A stretch of DNA of 64,000 nt. Source: Candidatus Micrarchaeota archaeon (GTDB lineage: Archaea; Micrarchaeota; Micrarchaeia; Anstonellales; Anstonellaceae). Within the stretch, counting starts at the first letter, position 1. The number at the start of each line of letters is the position of its first letter. Shown here one piece after another: positions 9,624 through 36,487 of this stretch. A program made the position numbers and the translations under genes. Where the stretch lies: the NCBI GenBank assembly GCA_021814005.1, contig JAKAJC010000004.1, positions 230 to 64,229 of the forward strand. Reading direction: 5' to 3'. Under the pieces are notes generated by a model. The model did not search any database. It saw only the letters and a list, made by a program, of their open reading frames with translations, and was not told where the DNA came from.

Positions 9624-9645
9624 CGATATCAGTGTTGCATCGTCA

Positions 9646-16144: not shown

Positions 16145-17197
16145 ATGGAAAACACGGCAGGAAAAATCGGTTCGGTTTCCCGTTTCGGGTTCGCCCCACT
16201 CGCAGTCCTCTCCCTGCTGTTTCTAGTCTCATCCTCTTCGGCCATCTTCGAGCCGCAGCTCTCGTGCTTCAACCAGACCTACAACATGGTGTATGATTTC
16301 GGCTCGCCAATCATCGCCGTCATTTTCATCATGGGCGTGCTCATCGCGATTGCGTACATGCTCGCGCAGCTTTTGGAAAAACCCGAGCTGTCGGTGTGGG
16401 CCAAGAGCGAAATAGTCACCCTGGGCTTTTCCATCCTTCTCATCGGCGCGGTGGTGGGCACGTTCGGACTTTCCTGCACAATCTCGAACTCGATGGTGTT
16501 TTCCGACTCGCGCGAATTCGCCAACAGCAGCGTGGTGGGGTCCGGCGCGCCGGCCAACGTTTTCACCAGCCCCGCGCAGAGGGCGGTGCAATATATCGAC
16601 AAGCTCACGCAGACCTACGGCCTGCGCCTCGCATCCGACCTCACCCGCCAGGCGGTGAACGACCAGCTCGGCGCGGTGGCATACGCGTACTGGTCCGTGC
16701 CGGTGCTTGACGGCGGCGGGCTTGCATACAAAGCCAACCAGCGCGCATGGGCGGCGCAGAAAGACATTCTCATCGACCTCTACATGCCGATGATGATTTC
16801 GCTGCAGGTGCAGAAATTCATGCTCAACCTGGCCATGGTCGGCGTGCTGAACATTCTTCTGCCGGCCGCGCTGCTTTTGCGCACGTTCTTCTTTTCGCGC
16901 GACATCGGCAACCTGCTCATCGCGCTCTCGTTTGCAATCTTCTTTGCCCTGCCGGTAGTCTATTCGTTCGGCTTCGAGGCGTCGGCAAATCTGCAGAAAC
17001 AGCTCTGTCCGTCGGGCTGCGACCCGCTCAATCCGTTCGGGCAGCTGAACATAGTCAAGGACCGCGTGGTTGGCGACAGCTATGCGAGAATCGGCTTCAT
17101 CTCCACACAAGCGATTTTAATCCCTAATCTCGCGCTGGTTGTGATGATAACCATGACCATGGCCCTAAACAAGGCCTTGAGAGGGTTCACAGGATGA
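16145..17197 (+). CDS. Polytopic membrane protein, paralogous module family member M2 (350 aa)
   Basis: The motifs are AYMLAQLLEKPELSVWAKSEI, LLPAALLLRTFFFSRDIGNLLIALSFAIFFALP and a C-terminal ILIPNLALVV...LRGFTG. It overlaps G5 by 4 nt (ATGA). Confidence 0.7.
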   Translation: MENTAGKIGSVSRFGFAPLAVLSLLFLVSSSSAIFEPQLSCFNQTYNMVYDFGSPIIAVIFIMGVLIAIAYMLAQLLEKPELSVWAKSEIVTLGFSILLIGAVVGTFGLSCTISNSMVFSDSREFANSSVVGSGAPANVFTSPAQRAVQYIDKLTQTYGLRLASDLTRQAVNDQLGAVAYAYWSVPVLDGGGLAYKANQRAWAAQKDILIDLYMPMMISLQVQKFMLNLAMVGVLNILLPAALLLRTFFFSRDIGNLLIALSFAIFFALPVVYSFGFEASANLQKQLCPSGCDPLNPFGQLNIVKDRVVGDSYARIGFISTQAILIPNLALVVMITMTMALNKALRGFTG

Positions 17198-20100
17198 GAA
17201 ATGAAAACGAAAACCCGGCGCGCCGCGAATCCGGCGTTTGCTTTGCGCCAGTCAATACGGCGCCAGCCGGCTTCCTGCCGCTGCACGCGCCGCATGTTTT
17301 CCTCTTCCTCCTCTGCCTTCTCTGTATCTCTCCAATAATTTTCTCCCAAAACACCACAATCCAGCCCGTGCTCACCGCCCAGAACGCGACTTTCGGGTTC
17401 GACAATTACGTGCGGGCAACCCTCGCGGCCGCCGCCCTCATGGCCGCAATCATGGCTCTGGTCTACATGGCAGGCATATTTTTCCAGAGCGAGGATGCCA
17501 AACAGCTGGCGCGCACTGAAATTCTGCAGACTGCTCTCAGCGTGATAATAGTCGCATTTCTTCTGGCCATTCTGCTCGGCGTCGACACCGGCCTTCGCCT
17601 TACCTCGGCCGAAATAGTCTCGCCCTGCGTGGGCCGCACCCTGCCCGCAAGCATCACGTCCGCCACTCTTCTCAACCAGTATGCATTCTGCTATGCGCAG
17701 GGCCTCAACGAAATGGCCATCGCGCAGGGCGACACCACAATCCGCAAGTCTGTCACATTTGCCAAGAAAGCGTATCGCATGGAAGGTTTCCAGACAGATT
17801 TGTGGTGGCTGCTCTACGGCGGCCTGACGCGCCGGCCCGATGCCAACCTGCGCCTTGACTCGGAAATCATGGGACAAGAGTTCACTCTTCTCACGTCATT
17901 CATGGTGAGCCTGCAGGGGCAGCTGGCATTTCTGCAATATATCGTGCCCGCGCTCGCGCCGGCGCTGCTTTTCCTTGGCGTCATCCTCCGCTCGCTTTTC
18001 TTCACCCGCAAACTTGGTGGCATGATGCTGGCAGCGGGAGCCGGATTATTGCTGGTGTGGCCGGCCACCTATCTGCTCTCATGGTTCACATTGCAGGTTG
18101 CGGTGTTCGGGCCGTCGGTGATGGGCGAGGAGCCGGGCTCGACCTGTCCAACCTCATGCAAAATCCTTCCCCCCGCCGGCTACAACATCTCAACAGCAAA
18201 TCCCGATTCATGGGGCAGTCCGCCTGCGGGTTCGCCTTATGCAACCGGCGCAATCAGCGCAAAGCAAATGGCAAGCGCCGGCGGCAGCTCGATTGCGCCT
18301 GACATCGGCGACGAGGCGGCCTGGAAACTGCGGGGCGTCCAGACCTGTTATCCGCAATACAATTACACTGAAGACAAGACAACCGGCACCCGCACATACA
18401 CTCTGCCGGCCGGCTATTCCAGCAGCGTGCCCGTGCAGTCTTCGGACAAGTGCCCCTCGGAGTGCCGCTTCCTTCCCACCCCGACGGATTTGAACTGCGA
18501 CCTGGCCGCCTGTGACAACATACCAATAGCCTGCAAGGCAATCAGGGCCATGAACCTTTCCACCTCGCCCCTGCCGAACCCGCCGGACAACTGCAACTCG
18601 TGCACCAGCTGCCCGGCGTTCTGCCGCACAATTTTGCCGCAGGTGAAATATGCAAACCCCGCAAACCCGGCCGCCGGAGTTGTGCCGACAACGAACGCGA
18701 ATTCATGCTCGGCCAATCCCGGCAATGCAACCCTATGCCCGCTCTACTGCCGCTCCTATTTGCACACGGACGCCAGCAACACGATTTCCTATTCCACTCC
18801 CGACTGCCAGGCCGCATGCCAAGCGACTCTTGACAACAAGAAAGACGCGGCAACGAGCCAGCCCGACTGCATGCTCGGCATTCCGGCCGCCATGATGGAG
18901 TGCAACACCCCCAACGTGTGCGGCCCTGCCATGAACCTTGAGGCTGCCATCGCCTCGGGCCGCACCGACCTCTGCCCGATTGAATGCCGCGTGAATTTCA
19001 ATTCATCTGGCACCGAGGACAGATACAAGGACCCGACATTCAACCAATACTGCACCGGCTCCGGCAAGTTCGGCACCGCGTGCGACACGCAATGCCCGAG
19101 CACGTGCAAGGTGAAAGCAAGCGCCGAGAACGCGGCGCTGCCAAATTCATTCTCGCTGGGCGTGCCCAACTCGTTCATAGTTTCGACCGGCGCAGGCAGT
19201 GTTCTTTGCGCGGCAGCCCCCACTTTCACAAACGGCCAGATGGACTCGAGCGTGAACGGGCAGTGCGCACGCTGCCCGCTCTCATGCCGCCTGCGCAACC
19301 CCTCCTCCATCCTCGACCTTGACAACAACCACAGCACTTACTTCTTCTCGCAGTCGCATTATGCCCTCACCTGCAATTACCGCAACACCACCCCAATCAT
19401 CCTGTACTCCGGCGCGTGCAGAAATTCCACATTCCCGCCCGGCTGGCTTGCGTTCGCTTCCGAAGATCCATCCGGCATTTCGTTGAGCCAAATCGGCCGC
19501 GGCCCGCCGGAATGCGCGCCAACCGCCCGCATTTACCTGCGCATGGATTCGTCAGACCCGCTCTGCCCGCTCTTTCTGGCCCCAATCCCGCCTTACATCA
19601 AGGACGGCACTCTTTCAAACGACCCTTCCAATTCCGCGGTGTCTGCCATCATTCCGCCAAACACCGACGTGTCGGCCGAATGCTCCACTCCCGATGCGCA
19701 GAAATACTGCCTCGGCAAAGACCCGCAGGGCCAGCCCTATTGCGACATTTCCTGCCAGCCAGACCGCGCCGTGAACGGGCCGTTCTACTGCCACTTGACC
19801 GACCTCTACAGCCCGCTCTCCAGCATTCCCGACAACACGCAGCGCTGCGGCGCCTGTTCGAGCCCGGCAGCAGACAATTCCAAGGGGCCGCAATGCCAAG
19901 TCATGCTGACAAGCGGCAGCACCCTCTATCTGCCCAAAGGCTGCGACCCGTCCTGCGCGCCCGGCTCGCTTGACACTGCGACCGGAATAATCCTCAACCC
20001 CGACACAGACCCCAAGTCGAGGGCTTCATGCGGCGGCTTCTGCTATCCGCGCCTGCCCATCCCCTCGTGCAGCGCATATGCCCCCGCCAGCACAACCAAT

Positions 20101-21423
20101 CCCAACGGCCGCGCGTTCGCCTCCTGTGCCGCCTGCCCAACCGACTGCCGCTATGATTATCTCACTGCCGCGGGCATCAGGCGCCCAAACAGCCAGGACA
20201 ACTACTGCGGCTGGAGCTTCACCGCGCCAACCGCATGCTTTTCCATCACGCTGGAGCGCCTGCGCGGCAGCGACATCCCAAGCGTGAACAACACCCGCTA
20301 TTATTCGTGCACGCAGACCGAAGCAGGCCAATACCACTGGGTGCGCACAAGCAGCGGCGTTGACAACAGAAGCGACAGCGGCTGCAACGCGGCCTGGTAT
20401 CCGATTGGCCACTTCACCAACCAAACCGTTGCCAACCTCGCGTGCGGCCCAGGCACTTTCAGCAACACCACGAGCGATGTCTACTCATGCACGCCGGTCC
20501 ACAAGTATCCGGCCCTCGACAGCCTTGTCACCTCTTCGGGCGGGCCTTCCGATTACCGCGAATGCGGAGACATAAGCGTCAACGGCCAGAATCCGAACAA
20601 CAACCTCTGCGGCGCGCGCACGTTCGGCGGCGCAAGCGTCCAGCTGTGCAAGAACGACCGCGCGGCAACAGATTCGTGCTTTGCCCACTTCAACGCGCTC
20701 GCGGTTGCCTGCCTGCCGATTACCGGCGTGGTGAATGATTACACAGACCCCGCCAACAATCCGACCAAGGCGGAGGAGAGCTGCCAGAACTGCCCGCTCT
20801 TCTGCCGCATAGACAACGGCGGCCAGATATGCTCGCCGTGGTCTGCCGGCGGCGAGCCTCCCAAATGTGATTTCCCCAACCAGTGCGACCGGCGCACTGC
20901 TCAGGGCAGCGGCTACTGCGGCATCCCGTCATCAGCATTCAAAATTGGCCAGGGCTGCGCGAATTACACCGGCGGCTCCGGCGTGGGCTGCCCCGCCCGC
21001 TGCCGCGTTTCACTGCCGTCCGGCAACGTGCCATACGGCTGCTCGGGCGGTGAAATCGGCAACGCATGCTCGCCCGGCAATCTTGATTCGGCATGCACCG
21101 CCACCCCGCCCGACAATCCGTGCGCAGGCTGCGGCGAATGCGACACCGACTGCCGCTCCACGCCTTATGTGCGGCAGAACTGCGACGACCTCTGCCTGCC
21201 GACAGACTTTGCCACCGGAGCCTCGCCCATCACGCCCAAGGACCTTTTGATGTCGTGGGAAGGCGCGTCGGGCAACCCCGACTGGCGCTCATTGGGCTCT
21301 TTGGGCATCGCCGCTTTCCTGCTGCCGATTCTCAACATCATACTCACTCTTGCATTCATCCGCAGCCTCTCGCCGGTGCTGGGCGGCGACATCGAGATTC
21401 CGGGAATACTCAAGGTGCTGTGA
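17194..21423 (+). CDS. Giant Cys-rich membrane glycoprotein G5 (1409 aa). An N-terminal paralogous membrane module is fused to a roughly 1000-aa Cys-rich ectodomain, followed by a C-terminal TM.
   Basis: The motifs are VYMAGIFFQSEDAKQLARTEI and LAPALLFLGVILRSLFFTRKLGGMMLAAG. The ectodomain has at least 13 copies of C-[PD]-x-x-C-[RKQ], for example CPSECRF, CPAFCRT, CPLYCRS, CPIECRV, CPLSCRL, CPTDCRY, CPLFCRI, CPARCRV and CDTDCRS. It also has many N-x-S/T sequons. The C-terminus is AFLLPILNIILTLAFIRSLSPVLGGDIEIPGILKVL. Confidence 0.75.
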   Translation: MRNENENPARRESGVCFAPVNTAPAGFLPLHAPHVFLFLLCLLCISPIIFSQNTTIQPVLTAQNATFGFDNYVRATLAAAALMAAIMALVYMAGIFFQSEDAKQLARTEILQTALSVIIVAFLLAILLGVDTGLRLTSAEIVSPCVGRTLPASITSATLLNQYAFCYAQGLNEMAIAQGDTTIRKSVTFAKKAYRMEGFQTDLWWLLYGGLTRRPDANLRLDSEIMGQEFTLLTSFMVSLQGQLAFLQYIVPALAPALLFLGVILRSLFFTRKLGGMMLAAGAGLLLVWPATYLLSWFTLQVAVFGPSVMGEEPGSTCPTSCKILPPAGYNISTANPDSWGSPPAGSPYATGAISAKQMASAGGSSIAPDIGDEAAWKLRGVQTCYPQYNYTEDKTTGTRTYTLPAGYSSSVPVQSSDKCPSECRFLPTPTDLNCDLAACDNIPIACKAIRAMNLSTSPLPNPPDNCNSCTSCPAFCRTILPQVKYANPANPAAGVVPTTNANSCSANPGNATLCPLYCRSYLHTDASNTISYSTPDCQAACQATLDNKKDAATSQPDCMLGIPAAMMECNTPNVCGPAMNLEAAIASGRTDLCPIECRVNFNSSGTEDRYKDPTFNQYCTGSGKFGTACDTQCPSTCKVKASAENAALPNSFSLGVPNSFIVSTGAGSVLCAAAPTFTNGQMDSSVNGQCARCPLSCRLRNPSSILDLDNNHSTYFFSQSHYALTCNYRNTTPIILYSGACRNSTFPPGWLAFASEDPSGISLSQIGRGPPECAPTARIYLRMDSSDPLCPLFLAPIPPYIKDGTLSNDPSNSAVSAIIPPNTDVSAECSTPDAQKYCLGKDPQGQPYCDISCQPDRAVNGPFYCHLTDLYSPLSSIPDNTQRCGACSSPAADNSKGPQCQVMLTSGSTLYLPKGCDPSCAPGSLDTATGIILNPDTDPKSRASCGGFCYPRLPIPSCSAYAPASTTNPNGRAFASCAACPTDCRYDYLTAAGIRRPNSQDNYCGWSFTAPTACFSITLERLRGSDIPSVNNTRYYSCTQTEAGQYHWVRTSSGVDNRSDSGCNAAWYPIGHFTNQTVANLACGPGTFSNTTSDVYSCTPVHKYPALDSLVTSSGGPSDYRECGDISVNGQNPNNNLCGARTFGGASVQLCKNDRAATDSCFAHFNALAVACLPITGVVNDYTDPANNPTKAEESCQNCPLFCRIDNGGQICSPWSAGGEPPKCDFPNQCDRRTAQGSGYCGIPSSAFKIGQGCANYTGGSGVGCPARCRVSLPSGNVPYGCSGGEIGNACSPGNLDSACTATPPDNPCAGCGECDTDCRSTPYVRQNCDDLCLPTDFATGASPITPKDLLMSWEGASGNPDWRSLGSLGIAAFLLPILNIILTLAFIRSLSPVLGGDIEIPGILKVL

Positions 21424-21428
21424 GAAAA

Positions 21429-22718
21429 ATGGCGCGAGCTCAAAAAACAAAAACAAAAAATGAAAAAGAAAACGGCTGCTCCCGTTTCGCGAGCATTGGC
21501 TTCGCGCGCGCCAGCCCTGCGCGCGCCAGCCCCGCGTTTTCTTCGGCGCGCTCGAGCGCGCTGCGGCATTTTGTTTTCTTGTTTATTACGGCCTCTCTGT
21601 TCCTTATCCCATCAATTCACGCGGCCGCCGCATGGCAGCCGGCAGTTTTCGCAGCCGTGCTCATCTCCGTCTCCGTGCTGGCAGTCGTTTACATGATTGT
21701 AACCGTGCTGAAATGGGACAGGTTCAAGGGCATCATAAAAGACGAGCTCGGCCAGACGTTCATCACATTTCTTCTGGTGGTCCTGCTTGTTGCAGGCATG
21801 TCCGAAGGCGAAACCCAAGCGTCGAAACTTGTGTGCGGCATTTCCGGCATGCCAGACTCCGGCTTCTGCCCGACTCCCGCGCGCGACACCATGATTTTCT
21901 GCAAAACTGCCGGAAGCAATCCCACCACATGCCCCATCACCGGCAGCCAGCCGCTCAACAACTGGGCCCTCTCGCTCAACACCAACGCGCAGTCTCTCCT
22001 GAGCACCAACCTGCTCGCCAAGGCGCTGGAGTTCAACCAAAAACTCGGCTATGTGAGCTCGGTGTCGGGCTTCTGCAACATGCTTGGCGTGGGCTTCTCC
22101 ATCGCCGGCTGCTCCACTTACGGCGTGCTGCGCGGACCCGTCGGCCAGCTGCTCAACGCAATCGGCATCGGATTGATGGATTTGCAGGCAGAGCGGATTC
22201 TGCTCCAGCTCAACACTGCCGGTTTCACGCTGAGCCTGCTTTTGCCGCTTGGCATCCTGCTCCGCGCGCTGCACTGGACCAGAAAGGCGGGCGGCACGCT
22301 CATCGCCCTCGCACTCTCGCTCTACTTCATTTTCCCCGCGTCGCTTTTGCTTGGGCAGGCGATGGCAGACCAGTTCATCAAGACGGGCAGCCCGTATCAG
22401 GCCCTCGCAGCCGGCCCGACGTTTCCGGCAATGAGCGGCAGCTACAATCCGCTCGACACATCTACCGTCGAATGCAATCCATTTGACCCAAGCACCGGCA
22501 AGATGGTCAACACCATGAACAGCTTCCTCACGCGCAGTCCTTCCGACCCCGCGAACGTCAAGAATCCATCCACCATCGACCAGATTCTTTTCGTTGTGAT
22601 GATACGCAACCTGATGATAACCATCGTGGCGCTCACAGTCACCCTCTCCGCCACGCGCGTGCTGGGCCACGCCCTTGGCGCGGAAATCGACGTGTGGGGC
22701 ATTGCGAGGCTGAGCTAA
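21429..22718 (+). CDS. Polytopic membrane protein, paralogous module family member M4 (430 aa)
   Basis: Start taken at MARAQKTK; the track's 21093 start overlaps G5 and is unlikely. The motifs are AVVYMIVTVLKWDRFKGIIKDEL, LLPLGILLRALHWTRKAGGTLIALALSLYFIFP and a C-terminal LGAEIDVWGIARLS. Confidence 0.7.
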   Translation: MARAQKTKTKNEKENGCSRFASIGFARASPARASPAFSSARSSALRHFVFLFITASLFLIPSIHAAAAWQPAVFAAVLISVSVLAVVYMIVTVLKWDRFKGIIKDELGQTFITFLLVVLLVAGMSEGETQASKLVCGISGMPDSGFCPTPARDTMIFCKTAGSNPTTCPITGSQPLNNWALSLNTNAQSLLSTNLLAKALEFNQKLGYVSSVSGFCNMLGVGFSIAGCSTYGVLRGPVGQLLNAIGIGLMDLQAERILLQLNTAGFTLSLLLPLGILLRALHWTRKAGGTLIALALSLYFIFPASLLLGQAMADQFIKTGSPYQALAAGPTFPAMSGSYNPLDTSTVECNPFDPSTGKMVNTMNSFLTRSPSDPANVKNPSTIDQILFVVMIRNLMITIVALTVTLSATRVLGHALGAEIDVWGIARLS

Positions 22719-25700
22719 ATGGAGAAAAAGAACCGGCCGCATTCACCGAAGTTCTCATCGCCATCGCCCATGCCGCACCTTGCGCTGTTATTTCTCTTGG
22801 CCGCAGTTCTGCTCGCTCCATTTGTTTCGGCAGACATAACCGCAACAATTGATTACAACAGCGCCCCTCCCCCGCCCGCCTCGCCCTGGCTCACCATAAC
22901 TCCGATGACTGTGGGCGTGAGCGCCGACTGCGGCACCATACCGCCCTGCGTGCCGCCGTTCAGAATCAATTTCCAGTTCGTCTGCGGCGGCACCCCTGTG
23001 CAGGAAACATTCACAAACGTCCCGCCGGCCTCCCGAACAGCATACACCTATTATCCAAACTCCGACCCCGCATGCCGCGAGCCGACGCCGCTGAATTCCA
23101 TAATCACAATCACCGACACTACTGGACAATCATTTTTCACGCAAAGTTTCCCCGTAGCTCTGGCAAATGGTACAGACACCACTCCGCCGGGCATCTCGTG
23201 GAATCCCGTGCCGCCGCCAGAATATGATGCGGGCGCAACCATCAGCTTCGGCTTCACAGTCACCGACCCTGACGACAACACCAACGCGATTCCGACATTG
23301 TATCCAAATGTCGCCACGGCCGAGGTGGAAATCACCGACTTGGGAAACGGCCAGGTCTATGGGCCATATGACATGGGCCCGTTCCCTCCACCGAACGGCT
23401 GGAGCACCCAAGTCTTTCATATAGAAGGCACCCCCAGCGCCGACCACACTGTTGAAATCAACTGCAGCCGCCTCAACTGCGTCGGAGATTTGCAAATAAA
23501 AGTCAGGTCCCACGACCCTGCGGGCCTTGGCATTACCCTGCCGCCAATGATTGTGCGCAGGCGCGGCGGCCTGGTTCTTCCCTCTCCCATATTGGGCATC
23601 ATCCCGCCCGCACCCGTCTGCCCCAACGCGGCCATCCGCGCCATGGCAAACCAGCCGTCTGGCTCCCCTGCAATAGACAGCCATGAATACAGCTGGTCCA
23701 TCACTCCAAATCCTCCGGTGCAGATAGATACTGTGCCCGACACCGCCAAAACGGGCGCCACTTCAGACACATTCGACTGCGCGGCGCGCAACTGCCAGAA
23801 CGGCCAGACCGTGTCAGTAAGCGTGCTCGCCATCGCCGGCGCCCAGCGCTCCCCTCCCAACGCCACCCTGATTCTCGTCGACGGCAGCAGCCTTGACTGC
23901 AGAATGCCGGCAGCCCCGCTTCTCACCAACCAGACAATATCCATCTCGCCCTTCAACGCGATAGTGCTGGCAAACCAGAGCAACAACGATCCGCGAGCCG
24001 TGCTCCACCGCTATGTCTGGACCATGGCCGACGGCACAGTCATCGAATCCCCGCTCATGCCCCTGCCAATCCAAAATGTCACATCAGCTCCCGTGCCCTG
24101 CGCCGCGAATCCAAACCTCTACTGCCCGTCGGGAGGAACCGTCCTTCTCACGGTCTATTCATACACTGCGCAGAATGTGCAATCCCAGCCAGCATTTATC
24201 TCCATCTTAATTCCGGCGCGCTCAGCCCTCAATCCGCCGGTGGTTGTCACCAAGCCCTTCAGCCCGTATGACAACGACACCATCGTGCTTGTTGCAAACA
24301 ACCAGAACGAAGAGGTGGACCGGCACCAGTACCGCCTGCTCATCATCAATGCGGACGGCACTATATACCAAGAAATCGATGCTCCAATCTACGACACTGT
24401 TTCCACAACCGCGGCAGACAAACACACCACCACATCCAAGCCATTCACCTGCACGACAAGCGTATGCAGGGGCCGCTTTGCCAACATAACCGCCCGCGCC
24501 TACAATTCCCTTGGCTGGTCAGACTGGTCTCCCTGGCTGAGCGTCCCATTCGGCCCGCCGCCGATTCCTGCGCCAATACTTGTGCGCATCGACCCGATTC
24601 CACCCGGCAATTCGATGCTGTCAGACATCAATTCCGGACTTGGCGCGCTCCTCAACACCTCGCTTGCCTACAGCTTCACAATAACCCCGCCCGCCGGCCA
24701 GCCGCCGTTCAACGACTATATTCCAACCCTCACAGTCAACGGCGCAGACGCGCCGGTTTCATCCAGCCGCTCGGGCAACAATCTCATCATCACTCTGGCC
24801 TGCACCCCGTCATCATGTCCGAACGGCTCAATCCTCACATACAAGGTAATCGGCGTGCAGGCGGGAGCGAATTCCACTCCCCTGTATTTCTCGCTTGTAG
24901 TTCCGCAGGCGAGCGGCATGCCCGCGCAGGTGGGCGTCATCTGTTCCGGCGCCGAACTGCAAAGATGGCTGCAGGTGATGGCCATCGGCATGATGGCCCT
25001 TCTCGCCCTTATCGCGCTCGTCTATATGATTGGCGAGGCGCTGCACCACCCGCAGCTTTTGGAATGGTCCAAATCAGAAATCGGGCACGTGGGCATGACC
25101 ATCATCCTCTTCTTCCTCATCGTATGGCTGATTCAGTTCCAGTGCAACCTGACGGTGGGCGAATTCCTCAACTGGTCTGGCTCGTCAAACCCCCTCTACT
25201 CGTCAGGCATGACGCTTTCACAGGCAGGTCTCAAATCGCTTGAATGGGGCATCACCCAGACGCGGCTCACCCTCGTGGCCATGCGCTACGAGATGGGAGT
25301 GCTCAACATGCGGGCCACCTATTCCTCCTACTCCACCCAGTTCCCCGGAATGGGCGGCAACGGCTACAGCTTCATGCCCTTCTCGGGCGATTACACCCTG
25401 CTCGGCTCGTTCGGCATGCTCACCAACCTCAACTCCACTTTCCTGCTCGCGCTCCTCTTCCAGCTATTCTCGCTGTTCTTCTTTTCCTCTTCCAGCGGGC
25501 TGTTCATATTCCTCGTGCCGGTCGGCCTCATACTGCGCTCGGTTCCGTTCATACGCGGATTCGGCGGCTCGCTGGTGGCCATCGGCATCGGCTTCTACAT
25601 ATTCTATCCGATTCTGCTTGCCTTCACCGGCCTTCTGCTCGCGCCGCTCTACTCGGGCATTGACTCCACCAGCCAGCTCGGCATCGCCGACGCCTCGCAG

Positions 25701-25991
25701 CTGGAGGCAAAAGAGCTTGCGATTCACACGCCATTCAGCAGCACCGGCCTTGCTGGCGACAACATTTTCAGCTACAATCCGGGCGACCCGTATCCGGGGC
25801 CGCTGATGCCCACCGCCGGCAAGGACTCGCCGCCGAAGCTGGGAATATATTTCAATCTAACTGCCCTGAATTTCCTGCGCGCCATCCTCATTCCGACCGC
25901 AGGGCTGATAGTGACCGTGTCATTTGTGCGCGACCTCGCGGCCATTTTCGGCGAAGAGGTGGACGCGTCGAAACTGATTGCCATGATTTAG
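22719..25991 (+). CDS. Giant surface glycoprotein G7 (1090 aa). It has a signal peptide, a roughly 700-aa sequon-rich ectodomain and a C-terminal paralogous membrane module.
   Basis: The signal peptide is LALLFLLAAVLLAPFVSADI. There are many N-x-S/T sites (NGT, NCS, NQT, NAT, NVT, NDT, NIT, NTS, NGS, NST). The module motifs are LVYMIGEALHHPQLLEWSKSEI, LVPVGLILRSVPFIRGFGGSLVAIGIGFYIFYP and a C-terminal ILIPTAGLIV...FGEEVDASKLIAMI. Its ATG abuts the stop of the upstream gene. Confidence 0.75.
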   Translation: MEKKNRPHSPKFSSPSPMPHLALLFLLAAVLLAPFVSADITATIDYNSAPPPPASPWLTITPMTVGVSADCGTIPPCVPPFRINFQFVCGGTPVQETFTNVPPASRTAYTYYPNSDPACREPTPLNSIITITDTTGQSFFTQSFPVALANGTDTTPPGISWNPVPPPEYDAGATISFGFTVTDPDDNTNAIPTLYPNVATAEVEITDLGNGQVYGPYDMGPFPPPNGWSTQVFHIEGTPSADHTVEINCSRLNCVGDLQIKVRSHDPAGLGITLPPMIVRRRGGLVLPSPILGIIPPAPVCPNAAIRAMANQPSGSPAIDSHEYSWSITPNPPVQIDTVPDTAKTGATSDTFDCAARNCQNGQTVSVSVLAIAGAQRSPPNATLILVDGSSLDCRMPAAPLLTNQTISISPFNAIVLANQSNNDPRAVLHRYVWTMADGTVIESPLMPLPIQNVTSAPVPCAANPNLYCPSGGTVLLTVYSYTAQNVQSQPAFISILIPARSALNPPVVVTKPFSPYDNDTIVLVANNQNEEVDRHQYRLLIINADGTIYQEIDAPIYDTVSTTAADKHTTTSKPFTCTTSVCRGRFANITARAYNSLGWSDWSPWLSVPFGPPPIPAPILVRIDPIPPGNSMLSDINSGLGALLNTSLAYSFTITPPAGQPPFNDYIPTLTVNGADAPVSSSRSGNNLIITLACTPSSCPNGSILTYKVIGVQAGANSTPLYFSLVVPQASGMPAQVGVICSGAELQRWLQVMAIGMMALLALIALVYMIGEALHHPQLLEWSKSEIGHVGMTIILFFLIVWLIQFQCNLTVGEFLNWSGSSNPLYSSGMTLSQAGLKSLEWGITQTRLTLVAMRYEMGVLNMRATYSSYSTQFPGMGGNGYSFMPFSGDYTLLGSFGMLTNLNSTFLLALLFQLFSLFFFSSSSGLFIFLVPVGLILRSVPFIRGFGGSLVAIGIGFYIFYPILLAFTGLLLAPLYSGIDSTSQLGIADASQLEAKELAIHTPFSSTGLAGDNIFSYNPGDPYPGPLMPTAGKDSPPKLGIYFNLTALNFLRAILIPTAGLIVTVSFVRDLAAIFGEEVDASKLIAMI

Positions 25992-26004
25992 GAGAGAACC
26001 TGCC

Positions 26005-27198
26005 ATGACAAAACAAAAAATAAAATCAAAAACAAATTCGGCCCCCATGTCGGGATTGCTTTCGGCCAGCCGCGCACGTTTCACCCTCTCCTCCTTCTTC
26101 CTCACATTCTTCTTCATCCTCTTCCTCTCGTCAATTCTCGCGGCTCTCGACCCCAACGCCCTCACATGGAGCAATCCCGACAAGCTCATGGTCCGCTCGG
26201 CCGGCTACTTCCAGCCAACCTCGCCCAACAGCTGGTACCGCATGGTCATTCCCGCTCTGGCCATCTGCATTTTTGCCAACACTCTTGTCTATGTGTTCGG
26301 GCGCGTTGCGAACGCGCCGCACGTGGTCCAGTTCGCGAAATCAGAATTCTACCAGGTCACGGCCTCGGCAGTCATGATATTCATTTTGGTGGCCGCGGGC
26401 GCGGAATCATTCCGCTATATTCAGGACAGCGGCCTGCTGCCCGCAGGCACCACGACTTTGTGCTACGGACAGGCGATGTCAGTTTGGGATGTGGGGCCGT
26501 TCGGCATAATCCGCTGCAAGCTGCAGGAGAAAATCGACTATGTTGAAGACCTCTACAATCAGGCATGGACTCTCAACGCCAATGTCGAGCCTCTCACCAC
26601 CTATTCGCTCTACCTCTTCAACATACCCGTCTATGTGTGGGACTGGAACACCGCCCTGCATTCGCAGATGGAGCAGGCCCACTTCATAGCCAACAAGCTC
26701 ACGCCAATCGGCATCAGCCTTCACGCGCAATTCATGTTTGCAGAATATCTTGCCCAGAACATGCTCAACGTATTTTTGCCGGTCGGCCTGCTGCTGCGCA
26801 TCTTCCCCATCCTGCGCGGCATCGGCTCTCTCATGGTGGCCATCTCAATCGGCTTCTTCTTCGTGTTCCCCATCGCATACATTTTGATGGACCCGACAAC
26901 CGTGCGGCCCGACCCTGCCACCCTCATACCGGCGGTCAATGACAACAAGGCCAACGTGTGCTACACTTCGTTCAGCGGCATGGTGACCACCTACACCCAA
27001 ATCGCCCCGAAGGTGGCGCAAAAGGCGGAGACGGCCGACATCACCCAAATAGGCTCGGAACTTGCCAAACTGCAGATAGAGGCGTTCTTCTATCCGCTTG
27101 CCGCGCTTGCCACCGCGCTGGTGTTCATCTCCATCGCCACGCCAATCTTGGGCGGCGACTCGGGGGAAATCATGCACTTCCTCACAAAGGTGATATGA
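26005..27198 (+). CDS. Polytopic membrane protein, paralogous module family member M6 (397 aa)
   Basis: The motifs are LVYVFGRVANAPHVVQFAKSEF, FLPVGLLLRIFPILRGIGSLMVAISIGFFFVFP and a C-terminal FFYPLAALATALVF...LGGDSGEIMHFLTKVI. Confidence 0.7.
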   Translation: MTKQKIKSKTNSAPMSGLLSASRARFTLSSFFLTFFFILFLSSILAALDPNALTWSNPDKLMVRSAGYFQPTSPNSWYRMVIPALAICIFANTLVYVFGRVANAPHVVQFAKSEFYQVTASAVMIFILVAAGAESFRYIQDSGLLPAGTTTLCYGQAMSVWDVGPFGIIRCKLQEKIDYVEDLYNQAWTLNANVEPLTTYSLYLFNIPVYVWDWNTALHSQMEQAHFIANKLTPIGISLHAQFMFAEYLAQNMLNVFLPVGLLLRIFPILRGIGSLMVAISIGFFFVFPIAYILMDPTTVRPDPATLIPAVNDNKANVCYTSFSGMVTTYTQIAPKVAQKAETADITQIGSELAKLQIEAFFYPLAALATALVFISIATPILGGDSGEIMHFLTKVI

Positions 27199-27199
27199 G

Positions 27200-30100
27200 T
27201 TGGGAAAAGAAAAAGAAATTGAGAGCATGCGCGCACAGGCGCCGCACCCGTCGCGGGAATCGGACAGTGGAACAAATATCAATCTGTTGTTTTTGGCCGC
27301 CATCTCCCTCTCCCTTCTCTCCCTCATTTTCCTCTCGGGCTGCGTGCAGCCCAACTCCAACCTCTCCTACGGCGCGTGCTGCATGCAGAGCAATTCGTTC
27401 TATACCTGCCAGGTGCGCACCGACGCCAACGGCACGCAGCAGCGGGATTCGAACGGCAACCTTCTCATCGACGGCTGCGGCCCCTGCATTGCCGTTGCCA
27501 AGAACGGCACGGTTTACAACTCGTCCGGCCCAACCGACGCCGCGCTCTGCACAAACAACTGCAACTTCAAGCAGTCCAACTGCACCAATTTCGACGGCAA
27601 AAACACCTGCTATCTTGTGGACAAGAACATGCAGACAACCAACGAATCGGTGGGCCCGATTTGCATGGCCGCAACCGACCCGTGCGTGCAGAACAACTGC
27701 ACTGCCATGGTTTACGGCAAGCCGCTTCCATCCCCCAAGCGCAGCATCAACTCCCAGTCGGTGCAGCAGTCCAACAACCCGGACGGCAACGCGTTCAAGC
27801 AGGACGCGGCCAACCAGAAGACCGGCCTTGTGGGCCGCATCATGCAGTTCAGCCAGTTCAACACCCGCCTTGCCCGCCTCTTGAAAAGTCCGGACTGGTC
27901 TGTGAACACTTTGCGCCTCGGCCTCCAAGGACAATTTTCCGACTACGACCGCGCGCGTTTCTATCTTCCGCCCTCGGATTACTTCTGCCCGCAAAACAAC
28001 CCCAACGCAATAGTTGACCGCTACACCGCCTATCTGGACGGGTTGAGCGCGCTCCCGCCTTTCCGCTCATACTACACTGTCAATTACGCAACAACCTGCA
28101 GCCCCGGCCACAAAAAACCCCCGTATGGCGGCTGGTATTCAACATGCACCTGCACTCCCTCCAGCCCTCCCGCCCCGCCGTGCGGCAAGGATTTCATGGG
28201 TTCTTCTGCCCTTGATGCAGAAGACATGTGCAACTCCTCCTGCACGAATTTCAGCCGTGTATACAGCACGCCCAATTTCAAGAATCCGCTCAGCCTCTGC
28301 CGCCTCGAGCCGGCATCAGGCGCCAATCTCTCCTACTTCTACTGCGATGTCAATCCCGGGCTCAAGTTCACCATCGCCGACCCGTCCGACCAGCTGCGCG
28401 CATATCTTTCCTGCCAGAAAGCATGCAGTTACAGCCAATACCGCACATGCAGCCAGAATCAGGACCTTCTGACCTACAACGCCAATCTCCACCCCAATAT
28501 TTATTCGCCCTCCAATTGGCCTCCACAAACACCTCCGGCCGGCTCAATCCAGCCGTTCATCGACATCGACCAATATGCCAAGGCGCTTGCGAACGCTTAT
28601 CCGACTCCGACCGGGCCGGCCTGGTGCCCCGCGCTTGTGGCGCTAAGACCCGACCCTGCCAAGGAGGCGGCGATGAAGAATGACCCGCGCAATTACTACA
28701 AATGCCTTCTGCCCGAACCCAACAGTGCCGGCGCCAACCAGACCATAGCCGCCTACGGCATCACGGCCGACCAGTACAACACCACCTATATGAGCGAGGG
28801 CATCAAGCCCGGGCCTGCCGGCGGCAAGGTGTTTGAGTGCACCGGCGGCGGCGACTGCCTCTCCGGCATCTGCGACAAATCCACCTATTCGCGCACCTCA
28901 TGCTTCCTCAAAGACGGCTCTGCGGTTGACTGCGCCTGCCGCTGGGTAACCAATTGCAAGCTCGCGTACCAATGCTCGGGTTACGAAGCCCGCAGCATCA
29001 GAAAAGACCAGTGCGAGGTGAACCTCAACAACTGCCAGGAGGCACAGGGAGGCTCGGACTATCCGGTGCTGATGTGCGAGTACCGCATCAATCCGCTCAC
29101 TCCCCAGACCGCCAATCCGCCCATCCATGGCCTGCGCACCCCCTACGCCTCCAGTGGCAACTATGTTTTCAACGACGGCCGCAACGGCTACGGCATTCTG
29201 CATATCGAGGAATTCAACAAATACATCGACGCTGCGGTCGCGGACGCCGAGCTTGCCACGGTGCAAAGGCCCTCCACTTCGCTCGAATTGTGCCCAAGCC
29301 GCGTGCGCCGGCCATGCGCCTCTTCAACAGAACAGGGCTGCTATGTGAGGAACACCAATCCTCCCGACGTGTCGGTGCTCTGGCAGCATGACGGCGACAG
29401 CGACGTATACCAGAACATACCGGCCTACACGCCCACCTACGACGCCTGCCCAAGCGGCGGCACGCTGTCCAATGTCTCTGGCTGGAAAGACACTCCCAAG
29501 GCATTTGGCGACTATTTGCGCGACAGTTCCTACCCCTCGCGCGAAACATTTGCTCTCGTGCCCACGCAGCAGGCGGTGGCCGGGCCGGGAGGCGCGCATT
29601 TCATCACCACCAGCCGCTATGTGACATGGCAGAATGACAACTGCTATTTCTCGCTCTCCGGCTACACTCTGAGCGGCTCAAAATGTCCGGCAGACCAGGT
29701 CCGCTTCCCGCTCTTTCAGGCCTGCAACATGAGCGTTAATTCCGAATATTTCAACAAAGCCGCAGGCAGCAGGAGCTATCCTTATCAGGACGCGTATCAG
29801 GCCGAAATATACAATGCCCGCGGGCAGGATGCGGCCGGCTCCGCGTTTGATGTGAAATATGTGGACGGCTATTCCTACGACCCAAACAACAACGACACCC
29901 TTTATTCCTACGGCGGCTCTGACCCCTACCGCATAGACAAGACGTGGGCAATCTACAGTTTCGGCGCCTGCCAGGTCCAGCCAAGCACCCCATCCGCTCC
30001 GGCGGTGTCGGGCAAGAGCCCGCCGCCGGTGGTGTTCAGCTACGGCATGTGCCGCTCGTGCGGCACCCTGCTGTCCATGGCTTACCAGCCGGTGAAGGAT

Positions 30101-31864
30101 TCGCCTCTGGCCTTCCCATACGACTTCAACGGCTACTGCCCCTCGGGCTGCAAAAAGTATATTTGGAACGGCTTTCTGAATATGGGGCCGAAATTCTCGT
30201 GGTGCGCCGAGTGCCCGTCCAGCTATCCTGCGCAGACTTTCAGCCAATTCGCAAGAGGCTCGCCGGCAATGTATCCTGATTTCGGATTTCTGGCCGACAA
30301 AATCAACGAATACCAGTCATCCAACATCCTGCCAGTTCTGGATGTGCGCAACTACCACTATGCCGACGGGGGCAGCACTGTTGTGAGAGTGCCGTTCTCA
30401 AATCTCTGCCAGACGCTCGGCGGCAAGAGGGGCGGCTCCGGCGCAATCAACCAAAACGGCGGCGTGTATCAGGGTTCTGCCTGGGACTGCACCCTTCCCG
30501 CACAGCCCGACTGGCTGCTTGCATATCTGAACAAGAACCACTCGGCCGCGGTTCTTATCGTGGCCAACCTGCCCCCCGCCGCAATCGACCCGGCTGTCGT
30601 GCAGGCGGAGGTGGACCGCTCTGCGAAGGCCTGCCCCAACTGCCTGCGGGCGCTCGAATACGTCCCGCTTCTCACGCCTTCCGACGTGACGGGGGCAGAC
30701 TACAATTATCCTTCAGCCCTCAACGACTCGGTGGCTTCATACACGAACGTGTCATTCAATCCCCTGCGCGTCAGCACGCCTCCCGAATGGCTGTCCAACC
30801 GCGGCAAGAAGCCCGACAACGTGCGGCAGGTGGACATGATAGTGCTTGAGCTTGACATGTCCGGCGTGGACATGACCAACGAGACGACCGTGGACAACGC
30901 AGTCCTCGCTTATGTCAACCTCTCGCGCCGCCTGCTGCAGCACGTGGGCTGGCCGACAATTTGGAAAATCAATTACAGATTCGGCATGTACCCCTCCGCG
31001 CTCACCAACGACGTCCTCTACCGCCGCATCATAGCGCACGAGCGCGAGATGACGCTGGCAGGGGTGAGCGGCGTGCTTATGCCGGCCATGGACAACGGCG
31101 ACCCGGACGGGCACATCACCGGCCCGCCCACCGAGCAGTTCGGCCGCCTTCTTCCCAACACCGGCGGCTTGAGCGGCTCGAGCCTTATCCGCGCATCCGG
31201 CACGCCTTTCTGCGCCCTGCAAAATGCCTCGGCCGAATTCCTGCATCCCAAGATGATGGTCGGCACCCAGAAAATTCTGGCCAAGAACAACTGCTCCTGC
31301 CTGCCGTGCAGCGACATGGACCTTCTGGCCGGCAACTGCAACAACAAGTGCTATGACGGGCTGGCCTGCGAGGCTCCCGGCGGCGGCACAAGCGCCGGCA
31401 GCAAGTGCGAGCCATACTGCGTGCGCAACAGCTTCTGCCAAAACAACCTGTGCAACGGCACCCAGATTGGAAGCAAGACAACAACCTGCACCGCCCTGCG
31501 CCCCACCAACCTGCCGCCTGTCTCCTGCGGCGCCAACAACGCCCTCTTCCCCAAGTGCGACGTGCTGGCCGATGCCGCGCTCAAAGACATAGCCGCATTG
31601 CCGCAGGCGCCGCAGCTTATCGGCGGATTGCCGCCGGGGCAGGGCTGCTGCCTGTCGCAGAATCGCACCTATTACACCTACCGCTCTGCCGGTTCTGCCG
31701 CCACTTCAGCAGAGCCGGTCATTTTCCCCGGCTACGGCGCCAACACCACAGACTGCGGGCGCGTGCCGGACCCGGGCGACCCCTATTCCGACCCGTCCGC
31801 AAACTGCGCCGTGCCGCCTGCTCCGCTAAGCAATGTGATGTGGACCTGCACCCCGCCGAGATGA
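27200..31864 (+). CDS. Giant Cys-rich secreted lipoprotein-like protein G9 (1554 aa) with no membrane module
   Basis: The track gives a TTG start; the ATG at MRAQAPH is an alternative. The signal peptide ends in the lipobox-like LSGC. It is extremely Cys-rich, with CxxC, CPxxCK and CPxC pairs. It has many sequons and a hydrophilic C-terminus. It is the last gene of the cluster. Confidence 0.75.
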   Translation: MGKEKEIESMRAQAPHPSRESDSGTNINLLFLAAISLSLLSLIFLSGCVQPNSNLSYGACCMQSNSFYTCQVRTDANGTQQRDSNGNLLIDGCGPCIAVAKNGTVYNSSGPTDAALCTNNCNFKQSNCTNFDGKNTCYLVDKNMQTTNESVGPICMAATDPCVQNNCTAMVYGKPLPSPKRSINSQSVQQSNNPDGNAFKQDAANQKTGLVGRIMQFSQFNTRLARLLKSPDWSVNTLRLGLQGQFSDYDRARFYLPPSDYFCPQNNPNAIVDRYTAYLDGLSALPPFRSYYTVNYATTCSPGHKKPPYGGWYSTCTCTPSSPPAPPCGKDFMGSSALDAEDMCNSSCTNFSRVYSTPNFKNPLSLCRLEPASGANLSYFYCDVNPGLKFTIADPSDQLRAYLSCQKACSYSQYRTCSQNQDLLTYNANLHPNIYSPSNWPPQTPPAGSIQPFIDIDQYAKALANAYPTPTGPAWCPALVALRPDPAKEAAMKNDPRNYYKCLLPEPNSAGANQTIAAYGITADQYNTTYMSEGIKPGPAGGKVFECTGGGDCLSGICDKSTYSRTSCFLKDGSAVDCACRWVTNCKLAYQCSGYEARSIRKDQCEVNLNNCQEAQGGSDYPVLMCEYRINPLTPQTANPPIHGLRTPYASSGNYVFNDGRNGYGILHIEEFNKYIDAAVADAELATVQRPSTSLELCPSRVRRPCASSTEQGCYVRNTNPPDVSVLWQHDGDSDVYQNIPAYTPTYDACPSGGTLSNVSGWKDTPKAFGDYLRDSSYPSRETFALVPTQQAVAGPGGAHFITTSRYVTWQNDNCYFSLSGYTLSGSKCPADQVRFPLFQACNMSVNSEYFNKAAGSRSYPYQDAYQAEIYNARGQDAAGSAFDVKYVDGYSYDPNNNDTLYSYGGSDPYRIDKTWAIYSFGACQVQPSTPSAPAVSGKSPPPVVFSYGMCRSCGTLLSMAYQPVKDSPLAFPYDFNGYCPSGCKKYIWNGFLNMGPKFSWCAECPSSYPAQTFSQFARGSPAMYPDFGFLADKINEYQSSNILPVLDVRNYHYADGGSTVVRVPFSNLCQTLGGKRGGSGAINQNGGVYQGSAWDCTLPAQPDWLLAYLNKNHSAAVLIVANLPPAAIDPAVVQAEVDRSAKACPNCLRALEYVPLLTPSDVTGADYNYPSALNDSVASYTNVSFNPLRVSTPPEWLSNRGKKPDNVRQVDMIVLELDMSGVDMTNETTVDNAVLAYVNLSRRLLQHVGWPTIWKINYRFGMYPSALTNDVLYRRIIAHEREMTLAGVSGVLMPAMDNGDPDGHITGPPTEQFGRLLPNTGGLSGSSLIRASGTPFCALQNASAEFLHPKMMVGTQKILAKNNCSCLPCSDMDLLAGNCNNKCYDGLACEAPGGGTSAGSKCEPYCVRNSFCQNNLCNGTQIGSKTTTCTALRPTNLPPVSCGANNALFPKCDVLADAALKDIAALPQAPQLIGGLPPGQGCCLSQNRTYYTYRSAGSAATSAEPVIFPGYGANTTDCGRVPDPGDPYSDPSANCAVPPAPLSNVMWTCTPPR

Positions 31865-36263: not shown

Positions 36264-36320
36264 CTGTATTTTCAGCCCCCTTCTTGAGGCTAAGGCTGAG
36301 CTTTTGATATTCTATTTTTT

Positions 36321-36390
36321 TGCTGTTTTGCTGTTGCCTATTTTTGCTATTCTGTTACTGCCTATTGTTCGCTGTTCTGCTTTGCCTGCT
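36321..36390. repeat. Pyrimidine-rich low-complexity tract of degenerate short repeats (TGCTGTT, TGCCTATT, TGCTATT, CTGTTCTGC) in the promoter region of the Lon-like ATPase gene
   Basis: Read directly from the sequence. The track's 36320 start would translate this tract as Leu/Phe/Cys repeats, which is implausible. Confidence 0.5.
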
Positions 36391-36487
36391 TCAATTCGGG
36401 CATAAAAGAATATATACCCCAATCAGGGCACGGGGAGCGCATAAGCCAATCCATCTCCCTTTTATTCCTCCATGCCTTTATTTTTTT

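Follow-up and report, generated by a model that had tools for sequence, protein, structure and literature searches.

A predicted beta-sandwich stalk on one of six paralogous membrane modules in a conserved Micrarchaeota operon, a candidate VirB6-like envelope apparatus

What is the role of a protein in which a very large extracytoplasmic region precedes a membrane module that recurs in the neighboring genes? We addressed this question for G7, encoded in a 64,000-nucleotide stretch of contig JAKAJC010000004.1 (positions 230 to 64,229, hereafter the window) from a Candidatus Micrarchaeota archaeon. A preliminary description, made from the sequence alone, had read G7 as a fusion of a displayed ectodomain with an anchoring or docking module; its observations proved largely correct and its interpretation partly correct. 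With moderate confidence, we interpret G7 as the subunit that carries a stalk or adhesin in a VirB6-like core of six paralogues, part of a very divergent Micrarchaeota envelope apparatus derived from a type IV secretion system (T4SS). Coordinates of all features are collected in Table 1.

The G7 coding sequence is real and is one gene. As previously described, the open reading frame (ORF) is uninterrupted, and its product of 1090 amino acids (aa) was identical in four independent assemblies: the NCBI metagenome-assembled genome (MAG), the ENA assembly and two Logan run assemblies, where it is called as 1073 aa. The counterpart of the window is contig DAHXIJ010000003.1 of MAG GCA_027332495.1. 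The arrangement of an N-terminal ectodomain before a C-terminal module recurs in at least 17 diverged clusters of orthologues, and this layout is unbroken in P0003, P0007, P0010, P0013, P0015, P0017, P0032 and P0036, which are 27-57% identical to G7. The preliminary description had named an assembly or sequencing error, joining a secreted Ig-repeat gene to a module-only gene, as the finding that would overturn it. Module-only G7 orthologues do exist (L008, L009 and L017), so a split form is biologically possible; still, the same product on four assemblies, the continuous architecture of diverged orthologues and two features that bridge the ectodomain/module junction, the conserved residue C742 and domain D6, leave this explanation with practically no chance of being right. 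The gene caller placed the start at 22,770 (Met18), yielding the 1073-aa product. We preferred 22,719 because a Shine-Dalgarno-like GAGG lies 10 nt 5' of this ATG, the M4 stop codon (TAA) abuts it, and a MEKK/MDKK N-terminus is kept in P0003 and P0007.

The N-terminus of G7 consists of a basic n-region (MEKKNRPHSPK), an h-region and the motif VSA/D at residues 36-39. This n-/h-/c-region pattern agrees with the cleavable signal peptide proposed earlier and marks G7 as a probable Sec-type secretory protein whose signal peptide would be cleaved after VSA. Between this site and the first transmembrane segment (TM1, from ~aa 745) lies an ectodomain of ~710 aa with 12.7% Pro and the Pro-rich linker PPPIPAPILVRIDPIPPG at aa 613-630, matching the description of a roughly 700-aa ectodomain with Pro-rich linkers. 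Two statements on its composition did not hold. The ectodomain was said to have few Cys; it has 17, which is low only relative to G5 and G9, and 12 of these fall in six C-x4-7-C pairs, one pair per domain. Its N-x-S/T sequons, called dense, number 11 against 7.4 ± 2.4 expected from composition (P = 0.10).

To model the fold, we used AlphaFold2 (AF2) with a 20-sequence orthologue alignment for full-length G7 (mean predicted local distance difference test score (pLDDT) 76). Counted along the 1073-aa product, aa 22-715 were all-beta and aa 727-1072 helical. Foldseek against the PDB matched leptin receptor, RPTP sigma/delta, contactin, fibronectin FN3 and alpha-2-macroglobulin MG arrays (E 2e-13 to 1e-9), in keeping with an earlier guess of an Ig-like fold. 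The ectodomain is thus predicted to be a tandem array of six Ig/FN3-like beta-sandwich domains, D1 to D6. By profile comparison, D3-D6 are evidently homologous repeats, with pairwise hhalign probabilities of 80-98% in five of six pairs and 40% for D5 against D6; D1 is tied to the other domains only by the common Cys pair. These repeats were detectable profile-to-profile only: self-BLASTP of the ectodomain returned nothing, and G7 had no match at E ≤ 0.1 to the Pfam Ig-like models (fn3, PKD, Big, CARDB). D6 is the ectodomain domain most widely kept in orthologues, being present in P0010, P0013, P0015 and L010. Just before TM1, C742 (24,939-24,944) is invariant in G7 orthologues; C809 (25,143-25,145), at the start of the TM2-TM3 outside loop, is invariant in set A4 and at least 90% conserved in set A3. 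A disulfide between C742 and C809 may link the base of the stalk to the outside loop of the module.

The C-terminal 344 aa of G7 were paralogous by BLASTP to M1, M2, G5, M4 and M6 (E 1e-4 to 1e-9), and a module hidden Markov model (HMM) matched exactly six ORFs of the window, M1, M2, G5, M4, G7 and M6. Both searches place a complete paralogous module at the C-terminus of G7, as first proposed, and the motifs quoted for it are all present (VYMIG at 768, WSKSEI at 783, LVPVGLILRSVPFIRGFGG at 932 and FGEEVD at 1077). We modeled the module alone from a 66-sequence alignment (pLDDT 86, predicted template modeling score 0.82) and obtained a bundle of 32-36-residue helices in which TM2 and TM3 are joined on the outside by a helical/beta loop. 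Five TMs were identified by hydropathy and AF2; in G7 the segments are TM1 (~aa 744-775), TM2 (778-810), a helical/beta ecto-loop (811-890), a kinked TM3 (891-940), TM4 (943-978), a second ecto-loop (979-1040) and TM5 (1041-1076). Since a signal peptide precedes TM1 in five of the six paralogues, the N-terminus of the module is outside and its C-terminus inside. Sequons within the module and all large insertions are confined to loops predicted to be outside, among them the TM2-TM3 loop of ~80-130 aa. Conserved sites are a Glu at the cytoplasmic start of TM2, an R-x5-R-x2-G motif at the TM3-TM4 turn and a Pro in TM4. Across three operon types, both Arg and the Pro are invariant and the Glu and Gly nearly so; specifically, R939 and R945 never vary in sets A2, A5 and A6, and the Gly, present without exception in A2, reaches at least 90% conservation in A5 and A6. 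The G7 ectodomain diverges about twice as fast as its module, with identities of 45/33/24% versus 78/63/54%.

We next considered the operon. The context scan used one genome per species, and the acidic C-terminal tail of G7 served as the search pattern that retrieved loci L005-L010, five labeled Candidatus Micrarchaeota and one "uncultured archaeon." By ORF-by-ORF BLAST, and as far as the contigs reach, the order cc-M1-M2-G5-M4-G7-M6-G9 was found in all six of these loci; L012, L016 and L017 have the same gene order. Even in L013, at 22-28% identity, genes correspond one-to-one and in order to the M1, M2, G5 and M4 profiles. It follows from this fixed order that the six paralogues are ancient, distinct orthogroups of a translationally coupled operon, a pattern expected for non-interchangeable subunits of one complex. 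G0 and cc are both kept upstream of M1, with orthologous fragments of G0 in L005 and L017, and G9 always comes after M6 in related loci, with synteny in L005-L010, L012 and L017. None of the nine cluster proteins had a credible match in Pfam, NCBIfam, PHROGs or PDB sequences. In G9, sequons are enriched (25 versus 15.3 ± 3.4 expected, P = 0.007) and the lipobox-like LSGC follows a hydrophobic region. At L012 (206-4511), the G5 orthologue is split into six consecutive ORFs, through either pseudogenization or assembly frameshifts, while M4, G7, M6 and G9 are intact.

G5 had been described as carrying the module first, and the module was accordingly thought to be combined with ectodomains in both orientations. 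The first proved wrong, and the second was not supported. The module profile matches G5 in two separated pieces, profile positions 3-296 at aa 62-346 and positions 310-346 at aa 1372-1408, the second with an independent E of 3e-5 though absent from the G5 input to the profile. The G5 ectodomain is therefore an insertion in the TM4-TM5 loop, with the module split around it. The module is always N-out/C-in, and all expansions lie on the extracytoplasmic side: in G7 and some M4-type relatives they stand at the N-terminus, behind the signal peptide, and in G5 between TM4 and TM5. The G5 loop insertion and the G7 N-terminal rod thus occupy extracytoplasmic points of one scaffold.

To define the family, we performed an exhaustive profile search with the six window modules across 1.84 billion cluster representatives (E ≤ 1e-3), which gave 2935 members clustered at 50% identity. 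When G7 or a G7-type alignment was used in word-indexed searches for homologues, only the query itself came back, whereas exhaustive profile and module-alignment searches succeeded. Sixty-six family members had no match in Pfam, NCBIfam, PHROGs or PDB sequences, and their public names are all "hypothetical protein." We classified ectodomains in the 150 best representatives. Among 33 complete representatives of the G7 group, the N-terminal extension ranged from 3 to 857 aa, and 16 had no ectodomain; short orthologues, as in L008, L009 and L017, have ~12-15 mature residues before TM1. The insertion in the G5 group measured 0-1158 aa. An N-terminal ectodomain occurred in 2 of 22 M4-group proteins and never in M1, M2 or M6. 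The preliminary description had suggested that displayed ectodomains are exchanged and that homologous loci be checked for further swaps, and such swaps were found: P0135, of the G7 group, has CARDB instead of the stalk (Pfam E 8e-17; the sole CARDB among 20 G7-type proteins), and in the M4 group P0116 has a Cys-rich ectodomain and P0108 a Y-x-W / C-x4-C repeat as in G7. The ectodomain of G7 is accessory.

What, then, does the module do? A distant family member, P0163, led to loci L014 and L015, which encode six tandem ectodomain-free modules, two TM-hairpin proteins (each a TM hairpin plus a cytoplasmic domain) and a 504-aa ATPase. The L014 ATPase matched CedD (1.5e-18), the VirB4-like CD1110 (1.6e-18), CedB (1.3e-16) and TraC (6e-14), and in Pfam DUF87, AAA_10, P-loop_TraG and TrwB_AAD_bind; its scores against CedD and CedB were only 60-67 bits, where the cut-offs are 600-700. 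We scanned metagenomes with this ATPase and obtained 40 loci. Module genes were present in all 25 loci having at least 2.5 kb of upstream sequence, and the 15 loci without a module gene all had less than 2.2 kb. The modules lie just upstream of the ATPase gene. Where the ATPase was 63-75% identical, there were six module copies if the contig reached far enough and two to five on truncated contigs; where it was 38-49% identical, there was exactly one copy. Single-copy modules share the signature LPLGLxFRSFFxTRRLGG ... FGGE plus the invariant residues.

These relatives come in two operon types. The first, at L014 3846-20919, comprises a TM plus basic coiled-coil protein, six modules, two hairpin proteins, the ATPase, small proteins and a 797-aa membrane protein; it also occurs in L015, L022, L023, L026, L031, L032, L034 and L049. 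The source MAG of the L014 operon carries the NCBI label Candidatus Marsarchaeota. The second is a minimal operon, at L051 8255-12160, of a single ~320-aa module, a 263-aa TM-hairpin protein, a VirB4-like ATPase and a coiled-coil protein, also found in L040-L043, L045, L047, L048, L050, L052 and L055. The L051 unit sits within a 524-kb contig, with purD, PGM and further housekeeping genes around it.

One alternative is that the module only anchors. Here the six modules would form a structural raft spacing envelope proteins, and G7 would be a SlaB-like stalk of the surface layer (S-layer) or outer sheath, without transport. A signal peptide, a beta-sandwich rod and a C-terminal anchor do resemble S-layer stalk proteins, the operon has no ATPase, and G5 and G9 are giant Cys-rich extracytoplasmic proteins; moreover, S-layer anchoring in Micrarchaeota is stated to be unknown (PMC8975820), and in ARM-1 the S-layer has six-fold symmetry, with densities that extend toward the membrane (PMC11329633). 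However, half of the G7 orthologues have no ectodomain, so that not every G7 protein can serve as a stalk; the module is better conserved than its cargo and has invariant charged residues facing the cytoplasm, and its relatives share operons with a VirB4-like ATPase. For simple anchoring, a bundle of five helices, long enough to protrude from the membrane, would also be excessive, and we consider this explanation unlikely. What stands of the anchoring or docking unit first proposed is the fusion of a displayed ectodomain with a membrane module; the notion of a mere anchor does not, because the conservation of the module, its cytoplasm-facing invariant residues and its ATPase-linked relatives make it look like a functional membrane-core or pore subunit with acquired displays.

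The preferred comparison for such a subunit is VirB6, whose N-terminus is periplasmic and C-terminus cytoplasmic and which spans the membrane about five times, with a large loop in the periplasm (PMC6120205). The module has the same topology: N-out, five TMs, a large outside loop and C-in. In Rickettsiales VirB6 paralogues, only the central TMs and the cytoplasmic loop between TM3 and TM4 are conserved (PMC7648143). From the ATPase partnership, the matching topology and the matching position of conserved residues, the module family appears to work like VirB6/CedA. By Foldseek probability, the best match of the module model was TrwI/VirB6 of R388 (8rt9_F, probability 0.57, TM-score 0.35, E not significant); 7o3v_F and 7o3v_G had TM-scores of 0.36-0.37, and a TrbL-annotated model was among the viral structure matches. 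The ATPase linkage, the VirB6-like topology and these weak fold matches together suggest a very divergent VirB6/CedA-like pore subunit. In a side observation, aa 400-459 of P0132 (the TM1-TM2 hairpin of a G7-group protein) had a weak Pfam T4SS_pilin match (E 0.008, under the curated threshold); the N-termini of CedA and VirB6 are reported to resemble cognate pilins (PMC9905601).

Several results weigh against this interpretation. VirB6 membership is not established: PF04610 (TrbL/VirB6) hit none of 66 family members at E ≤ 1, hhalign of sets A5 and A6 against TrwI gave a probability of 0.1%, and hhalign against a five-sequence VirB6 alignment gave 0.2-0.5%, equal to the reversed-sequence control. 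The NCBIfam Ced models had no hits on the modules, and no Foldseek match of the module model was significant (TrwI chains overall: probability 0.30-0.57, E 0.3-1.9, TM-score ~0.35). R388 VirB6 forms a homopentamer and no hetero-hexamer, the stalk is missing from half of the G7 orthologues, and host contact is purely inferred. No one-to-one correspondence could be drawn between the six paralogues of the window and the six of the ATPase-linked type. Across ~10 loci of the window type, neither an ATPase nor a hairpin protein nor a pilin is encoded within ± 10 kb of the operon; Walker A is absent from the nine cluster proteins, including the cytoplasmic region of G0, save a chance-like match in the secreted G9, and G0, cc and G9 have no profile similarity to the module-linked ATPase or hairpin proteins. 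The only FtsK/HerA-superfamily ATPase of the window (38,962-40,506) is HerA-type.

That ATPase lies 7 kb downstream of the cluster and consists of a HAS barrel plus DUF87 (HerA models E 6e-51). We weighed it as the cognate motor and rejected direct orthology, since it is HerA-type and only 19-25% identical to the module-linked ATPases, a superfamily-level resemblance; Ted loci often include HerA (PMC9905601). A 534-aa LonB-like AAA+ protein (36,320-37,924) matches only the ATPase part of LonB, and the protease domain therefore appears absent. Either the window-type operon uses a motor from another locus, or its core has been exapted.

The negative profile results leave room for an unrelated membrane complex, acting in envelope biogenesis or as a lipid or solute transporter, in which the likeness to VirB6 is convergent and the neighboring ATPase powers a process other than a T4SS. 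Consistent with this, no homology to known families was detected, the ATPase falls far under every curated cut-off with HerA models not far behind VirB4 and Ced, and pilins, relaxases and coupling proteins were not identified around any of the operon variants; a CedA1/TedC-like two-TM pilin ORF was likewise not recognized near the ATPase-linked modules. Nevertheless, the topology, the position of the conserved residues, the weak best fold matches and the type of ATPase all point toward VirB6 plus VirB4, and Ced and Ted provide a precedent for archaeal T4SS derivatives that are unrecognizable by sequence (PMC9905601). We therefore judge an unrelated complex to be improbable.

The nearest counterpart among known systems is the set of tandem extended VirB6 paralogues in Rickettsiales (Anaplasma VirB6-1 to VirB6-4 and Rickettsia RvhB6a-e), organisms that are likewise obligately host-dependent with reduced genomes. 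Anaplasma has four co-transcribed VirB6 paralogues with huge surface-exposed extensions of variable repeat number, the VirB6 module being C-terminal in three and N-terminal in one (PMC7648143). As in the operon described here, polytopic paralogues stand in tandem (four to five, co-transcribed, in Rickettsiales), and huge hydrophilic, surface-exposed extensions stand before or after the module, some with signal peptides or lipoboxes (PMC7648143, PMC2653234). Where the Rickettsiales paralogues have a conserved TM3-TM4 cytoplasmic loop, the module has an invariant Arg pair at the TM3-TM4 turn. The Rickettsiales proteins differ in being bacterial and recognizable by sequence as TrbL/VirB6, which the module is not, and their operon includes VirB3 and VirB4, whereas the window operon has no ATPase. 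There are also six paralogues here, with Ig-like rods or Cys-rich loop insertions that are all extracytoplasmic.

A further parallel is offered by Ced and Ted, archaeal T4SS derivatives with VirB4-, VirB6- and VirB2-like parts that are mutually unrecognizable by sequence (PMC9905601). Within Ced, CedE is a VirB6-like paralogue with five TMs, while the ATPases CedB and CedD fall in the HerA clade and begin with VirB4-like domains (PMC11868833). These chromosomal, domesticated systems resemble the present one in combining a polytopic VirB6-like protein (CedA, CedE or TedA) with a HerA/VirB4-clade ATPase (CedB, CedD or TedB) and in having paralogue pairs, and the module-linked ATPase scores best against CedD, CedB and VirB4-like models. 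Unlike the Micrarchaeota operon, they belong to Thermoproteota and have neither six paralogues nor ectodomain fusions; conversely, the window variant lacks an ATPase, and a CedA1/TedC-like pilin was not found. TrwI/VirB6 of R388 (PDB 7o3v, 8rt9) shares long membrane-protruding helices and an N-out/C-in five-TM topology, but it is a homopentamer that carries VirB5 without an ectodomain fusion, and profile similarity is nil. Finally, the string of Ig/FN3-like sandwiches resembles archaeal Ig-like, PKD and CARDB surface proteins and SlaB stalks, with true CARDB in one orthologue; PKD and CARDB proteins have been proposed as cell-cell interaction factors in Micrarchaeon Mia14 (PMC5498576). G7 differs from these in its anchor, which is a conserved paralogous 5-TM module and neither a lone TM helix nor a PGF/archaeosortase signal.

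Under the VirB6-like interpretation, G7 would be exported via Sec, its signal peptide removed, and its six-domain, disulfide-stapled Ig/FN3-like rod displayed outside the cell, ~20-25 nm long if extended and held by the C-terminal five-helix module in N-out/C-in orientation. The six paralogues, M1-M2-G5-M4-G7-M6, would together form the membrane core as a hetero-oligomer. For the module family, the most probable role is that of a VirB6/CedA/TedA-like pore component of a very divergent archaeal T4SS-derived apparatus, in which pore function and homology, as opposed to analogy, would both apply. Simpler relatives have one or six ectodomain-free copies upstream of a TM-hairpin protein and a VirB4/CedB/CedD-like ATPase; the Micrarchaeota form would have gained the G7 stalk, the G5 Cys-rich loop insertion and the separate giant G9 as decorations and G0 and cc as cytoplasmic partners. 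The G7 ectodomain would then be a lineage-variable stalk or adhesin reaching through the pseudoperiplasm and S-layer toward a host or the envelope. A bolder version, which we offer tentatively and to which we give a lesser but appreciable chance, is that a T4SS-derived VirB6-like pore was turned into a new envelope organelle: a six-paralogue, possibly pseudo-hexameric core, uncoupled from the VirB4-like ATPase, decorated with G7, G5 and G9 and tied to G0, serving as a DPANN device for host docking and exchange.

The setting of the operon in the window bears on its origin. Genes of the window are archaeal (GatD/GatE, NMD3, DUF2070, Kae1 and the LonB-like ATPase), and on the reverse strand at 50-4177 there is a 1375-aa protein with no TM, a Lys/Glu-rich C-terminus and no Pfam or NCBIfam match. 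GC skew is strongly negative over 18,000-30,000, about -0.19 versus -0.02 to -0.10 in the flanks, and GC content shows no more than a slight rise. The skew probably reflects composition, with Pro/Ser/Thr/Ala-rich ectodomains encoded on this strand, and not an origin in foreign DNA. An integrated conjugative or other mobile element, with G7 as a surface protein for mating-pair formation or entry exclusion like the C-terminal domain of F TraG, would fit this deviating skew, the link of the family to a VirB4-like ATPase and the action of the extended VirB6-like TraG in mating-pair stabilization and entry exclusion (PMC7648143). Such an element is very improbable given the flanking housekeeping genes (NMD3, DUF2070, GatD/E and proteasome) and the conservation of gene order and chromosomal position across deeply diverged Micrarchaeota; in addition, no integrase, relaxase or repeats were seen, the family had no relatives on viral contigs, and GC content is inside the window range.

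Table 1. Positions of the G7 gene, its predicted parts and the other genes of the cluster in the window
Feature	Position	Strand	Description and evidence
G0	9643..13956	+	First cluster gene: signal peptide, ~185-aa Cys-containing ectodomain, one TM, ~1200-aa cytoplasmic region
cc	14033..14971	+	312-aa soluble protein with Lys-rich C-terminal tail; conserved just upstream of M1
M1	14975..16141	+	Module-only, without signal peptide; positional orthologues in L005, L008, L009, L013
M2	16145..17197	+	Module-only paralogue
G5	17194..21423	+	Paralogue; ~1025-aa, 78-Cys ectodomain between TM4 and TM5
M4	21420..22718	+	Module-only paralogue
G7 coding sequence	22719..25991	+	1090 aa plus stop codon; single gene
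G7 signal peptide, aa 1-38	22719..22832	+	Predicted cleavage VSA/D, read from sequence; hydrophobic segment aa 22-40
G7 D1 beta-sandwich, aa 39-149	22833..23165	+	C71-x5-C77; all-beta in AF2 model; whole-model Foldseek Ig/FN3 arrays; Cys pair
G7 D2, aa 155-285	23181..23573	+	C249-x4-C254; AF2, Foldseek, Cys pair; weak profile similarity to D3-D5 (hhalign probability 24-52%)
G7 D3 repeat, aa 289-391	23583..23891	+	H-x-Y-x-W, C354-x4-C359; hhalign versus D4, D5, D6 probability 96-98%; AF2
G7 D4 repeat, aa 397-501	23907..24221	+	C461-x7-C469; AF2, hhalign, Cys pair
G7 D5 repeat, aa 505-614	24231..24560	+	C578-x4-C583; AF2, hhalign, Cys pair
G7 Pro-rich linker, aa 613-630	24555..24608	+	PPPIPAPILVRIDPIPPG; between D5 and D6 in AF2 model
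G7 D6 repeat, membrane-proximal, aa 617-731	24567..24911	+	C695-x4-C700; AF2, hhalign, Cys pair
G7 5-TM helical module, aa 747-1090	24957..25988	+	Predicted N-out/C-in; module HMM E 5e-128; AF2; hydropathy
G7 signature, predicted cytoplasmic TM3-TM4 turn	25512..25568	+	L-P-x-G-x-x-L-R-x5-R-x2-G (LVPVGLILRSVPFIRGFGG); R939, R945 invariant; G948 nearly
G7 acidic cytoplasmic tail	25947..25988	+	FGEEVDASKLIAMI; hallmark of G7 orthologue group; F-G-E-E-V-D-A invariant in A4
M6	26005..27198	+	Module-only, most conserved of the six; gene caller start 26047
G9	27227..31864	+	Last cluster gene; 1545 aa, 74 Cys, secreted or lipobox-like (LSGC)

The papers on Micrarchaeota and DPANN archaea that we consulted (PMC8204110, PMC5498576, PMC8975820, PMC8784108, PMC11329633) make no mention of the cluster. 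Cryo-electron tomography shows contacts and filaments in DPANN archaea, and the genes for them are not assigned (PMC8975820, PMC11329633). In Patescibacteria, a T4SS is essential for epibiotic growth (PMC12102498), and the operon parallels both this epibiosis T4SS and the extended VirB6 arrays of Rickettsiales. The modules define a large family, absent from Pfam, NCBIfam and the PDB, with distinct orthogroups, invariant residues and permissive insertion sites. For the question of how DPANN archaea attach to a host and take up lipids, nucleotides and building blocks, the operon is a concrete candidate conserved across the phylum: ~22 kb and nine genes, all with unannotated products, whose core is kin to partners of a conjugation-type ATPase in other archaea. 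Together, the operon and its ATPase-linked relatives point to an undescribed secretion-like surface machine that may have a role in host contact.

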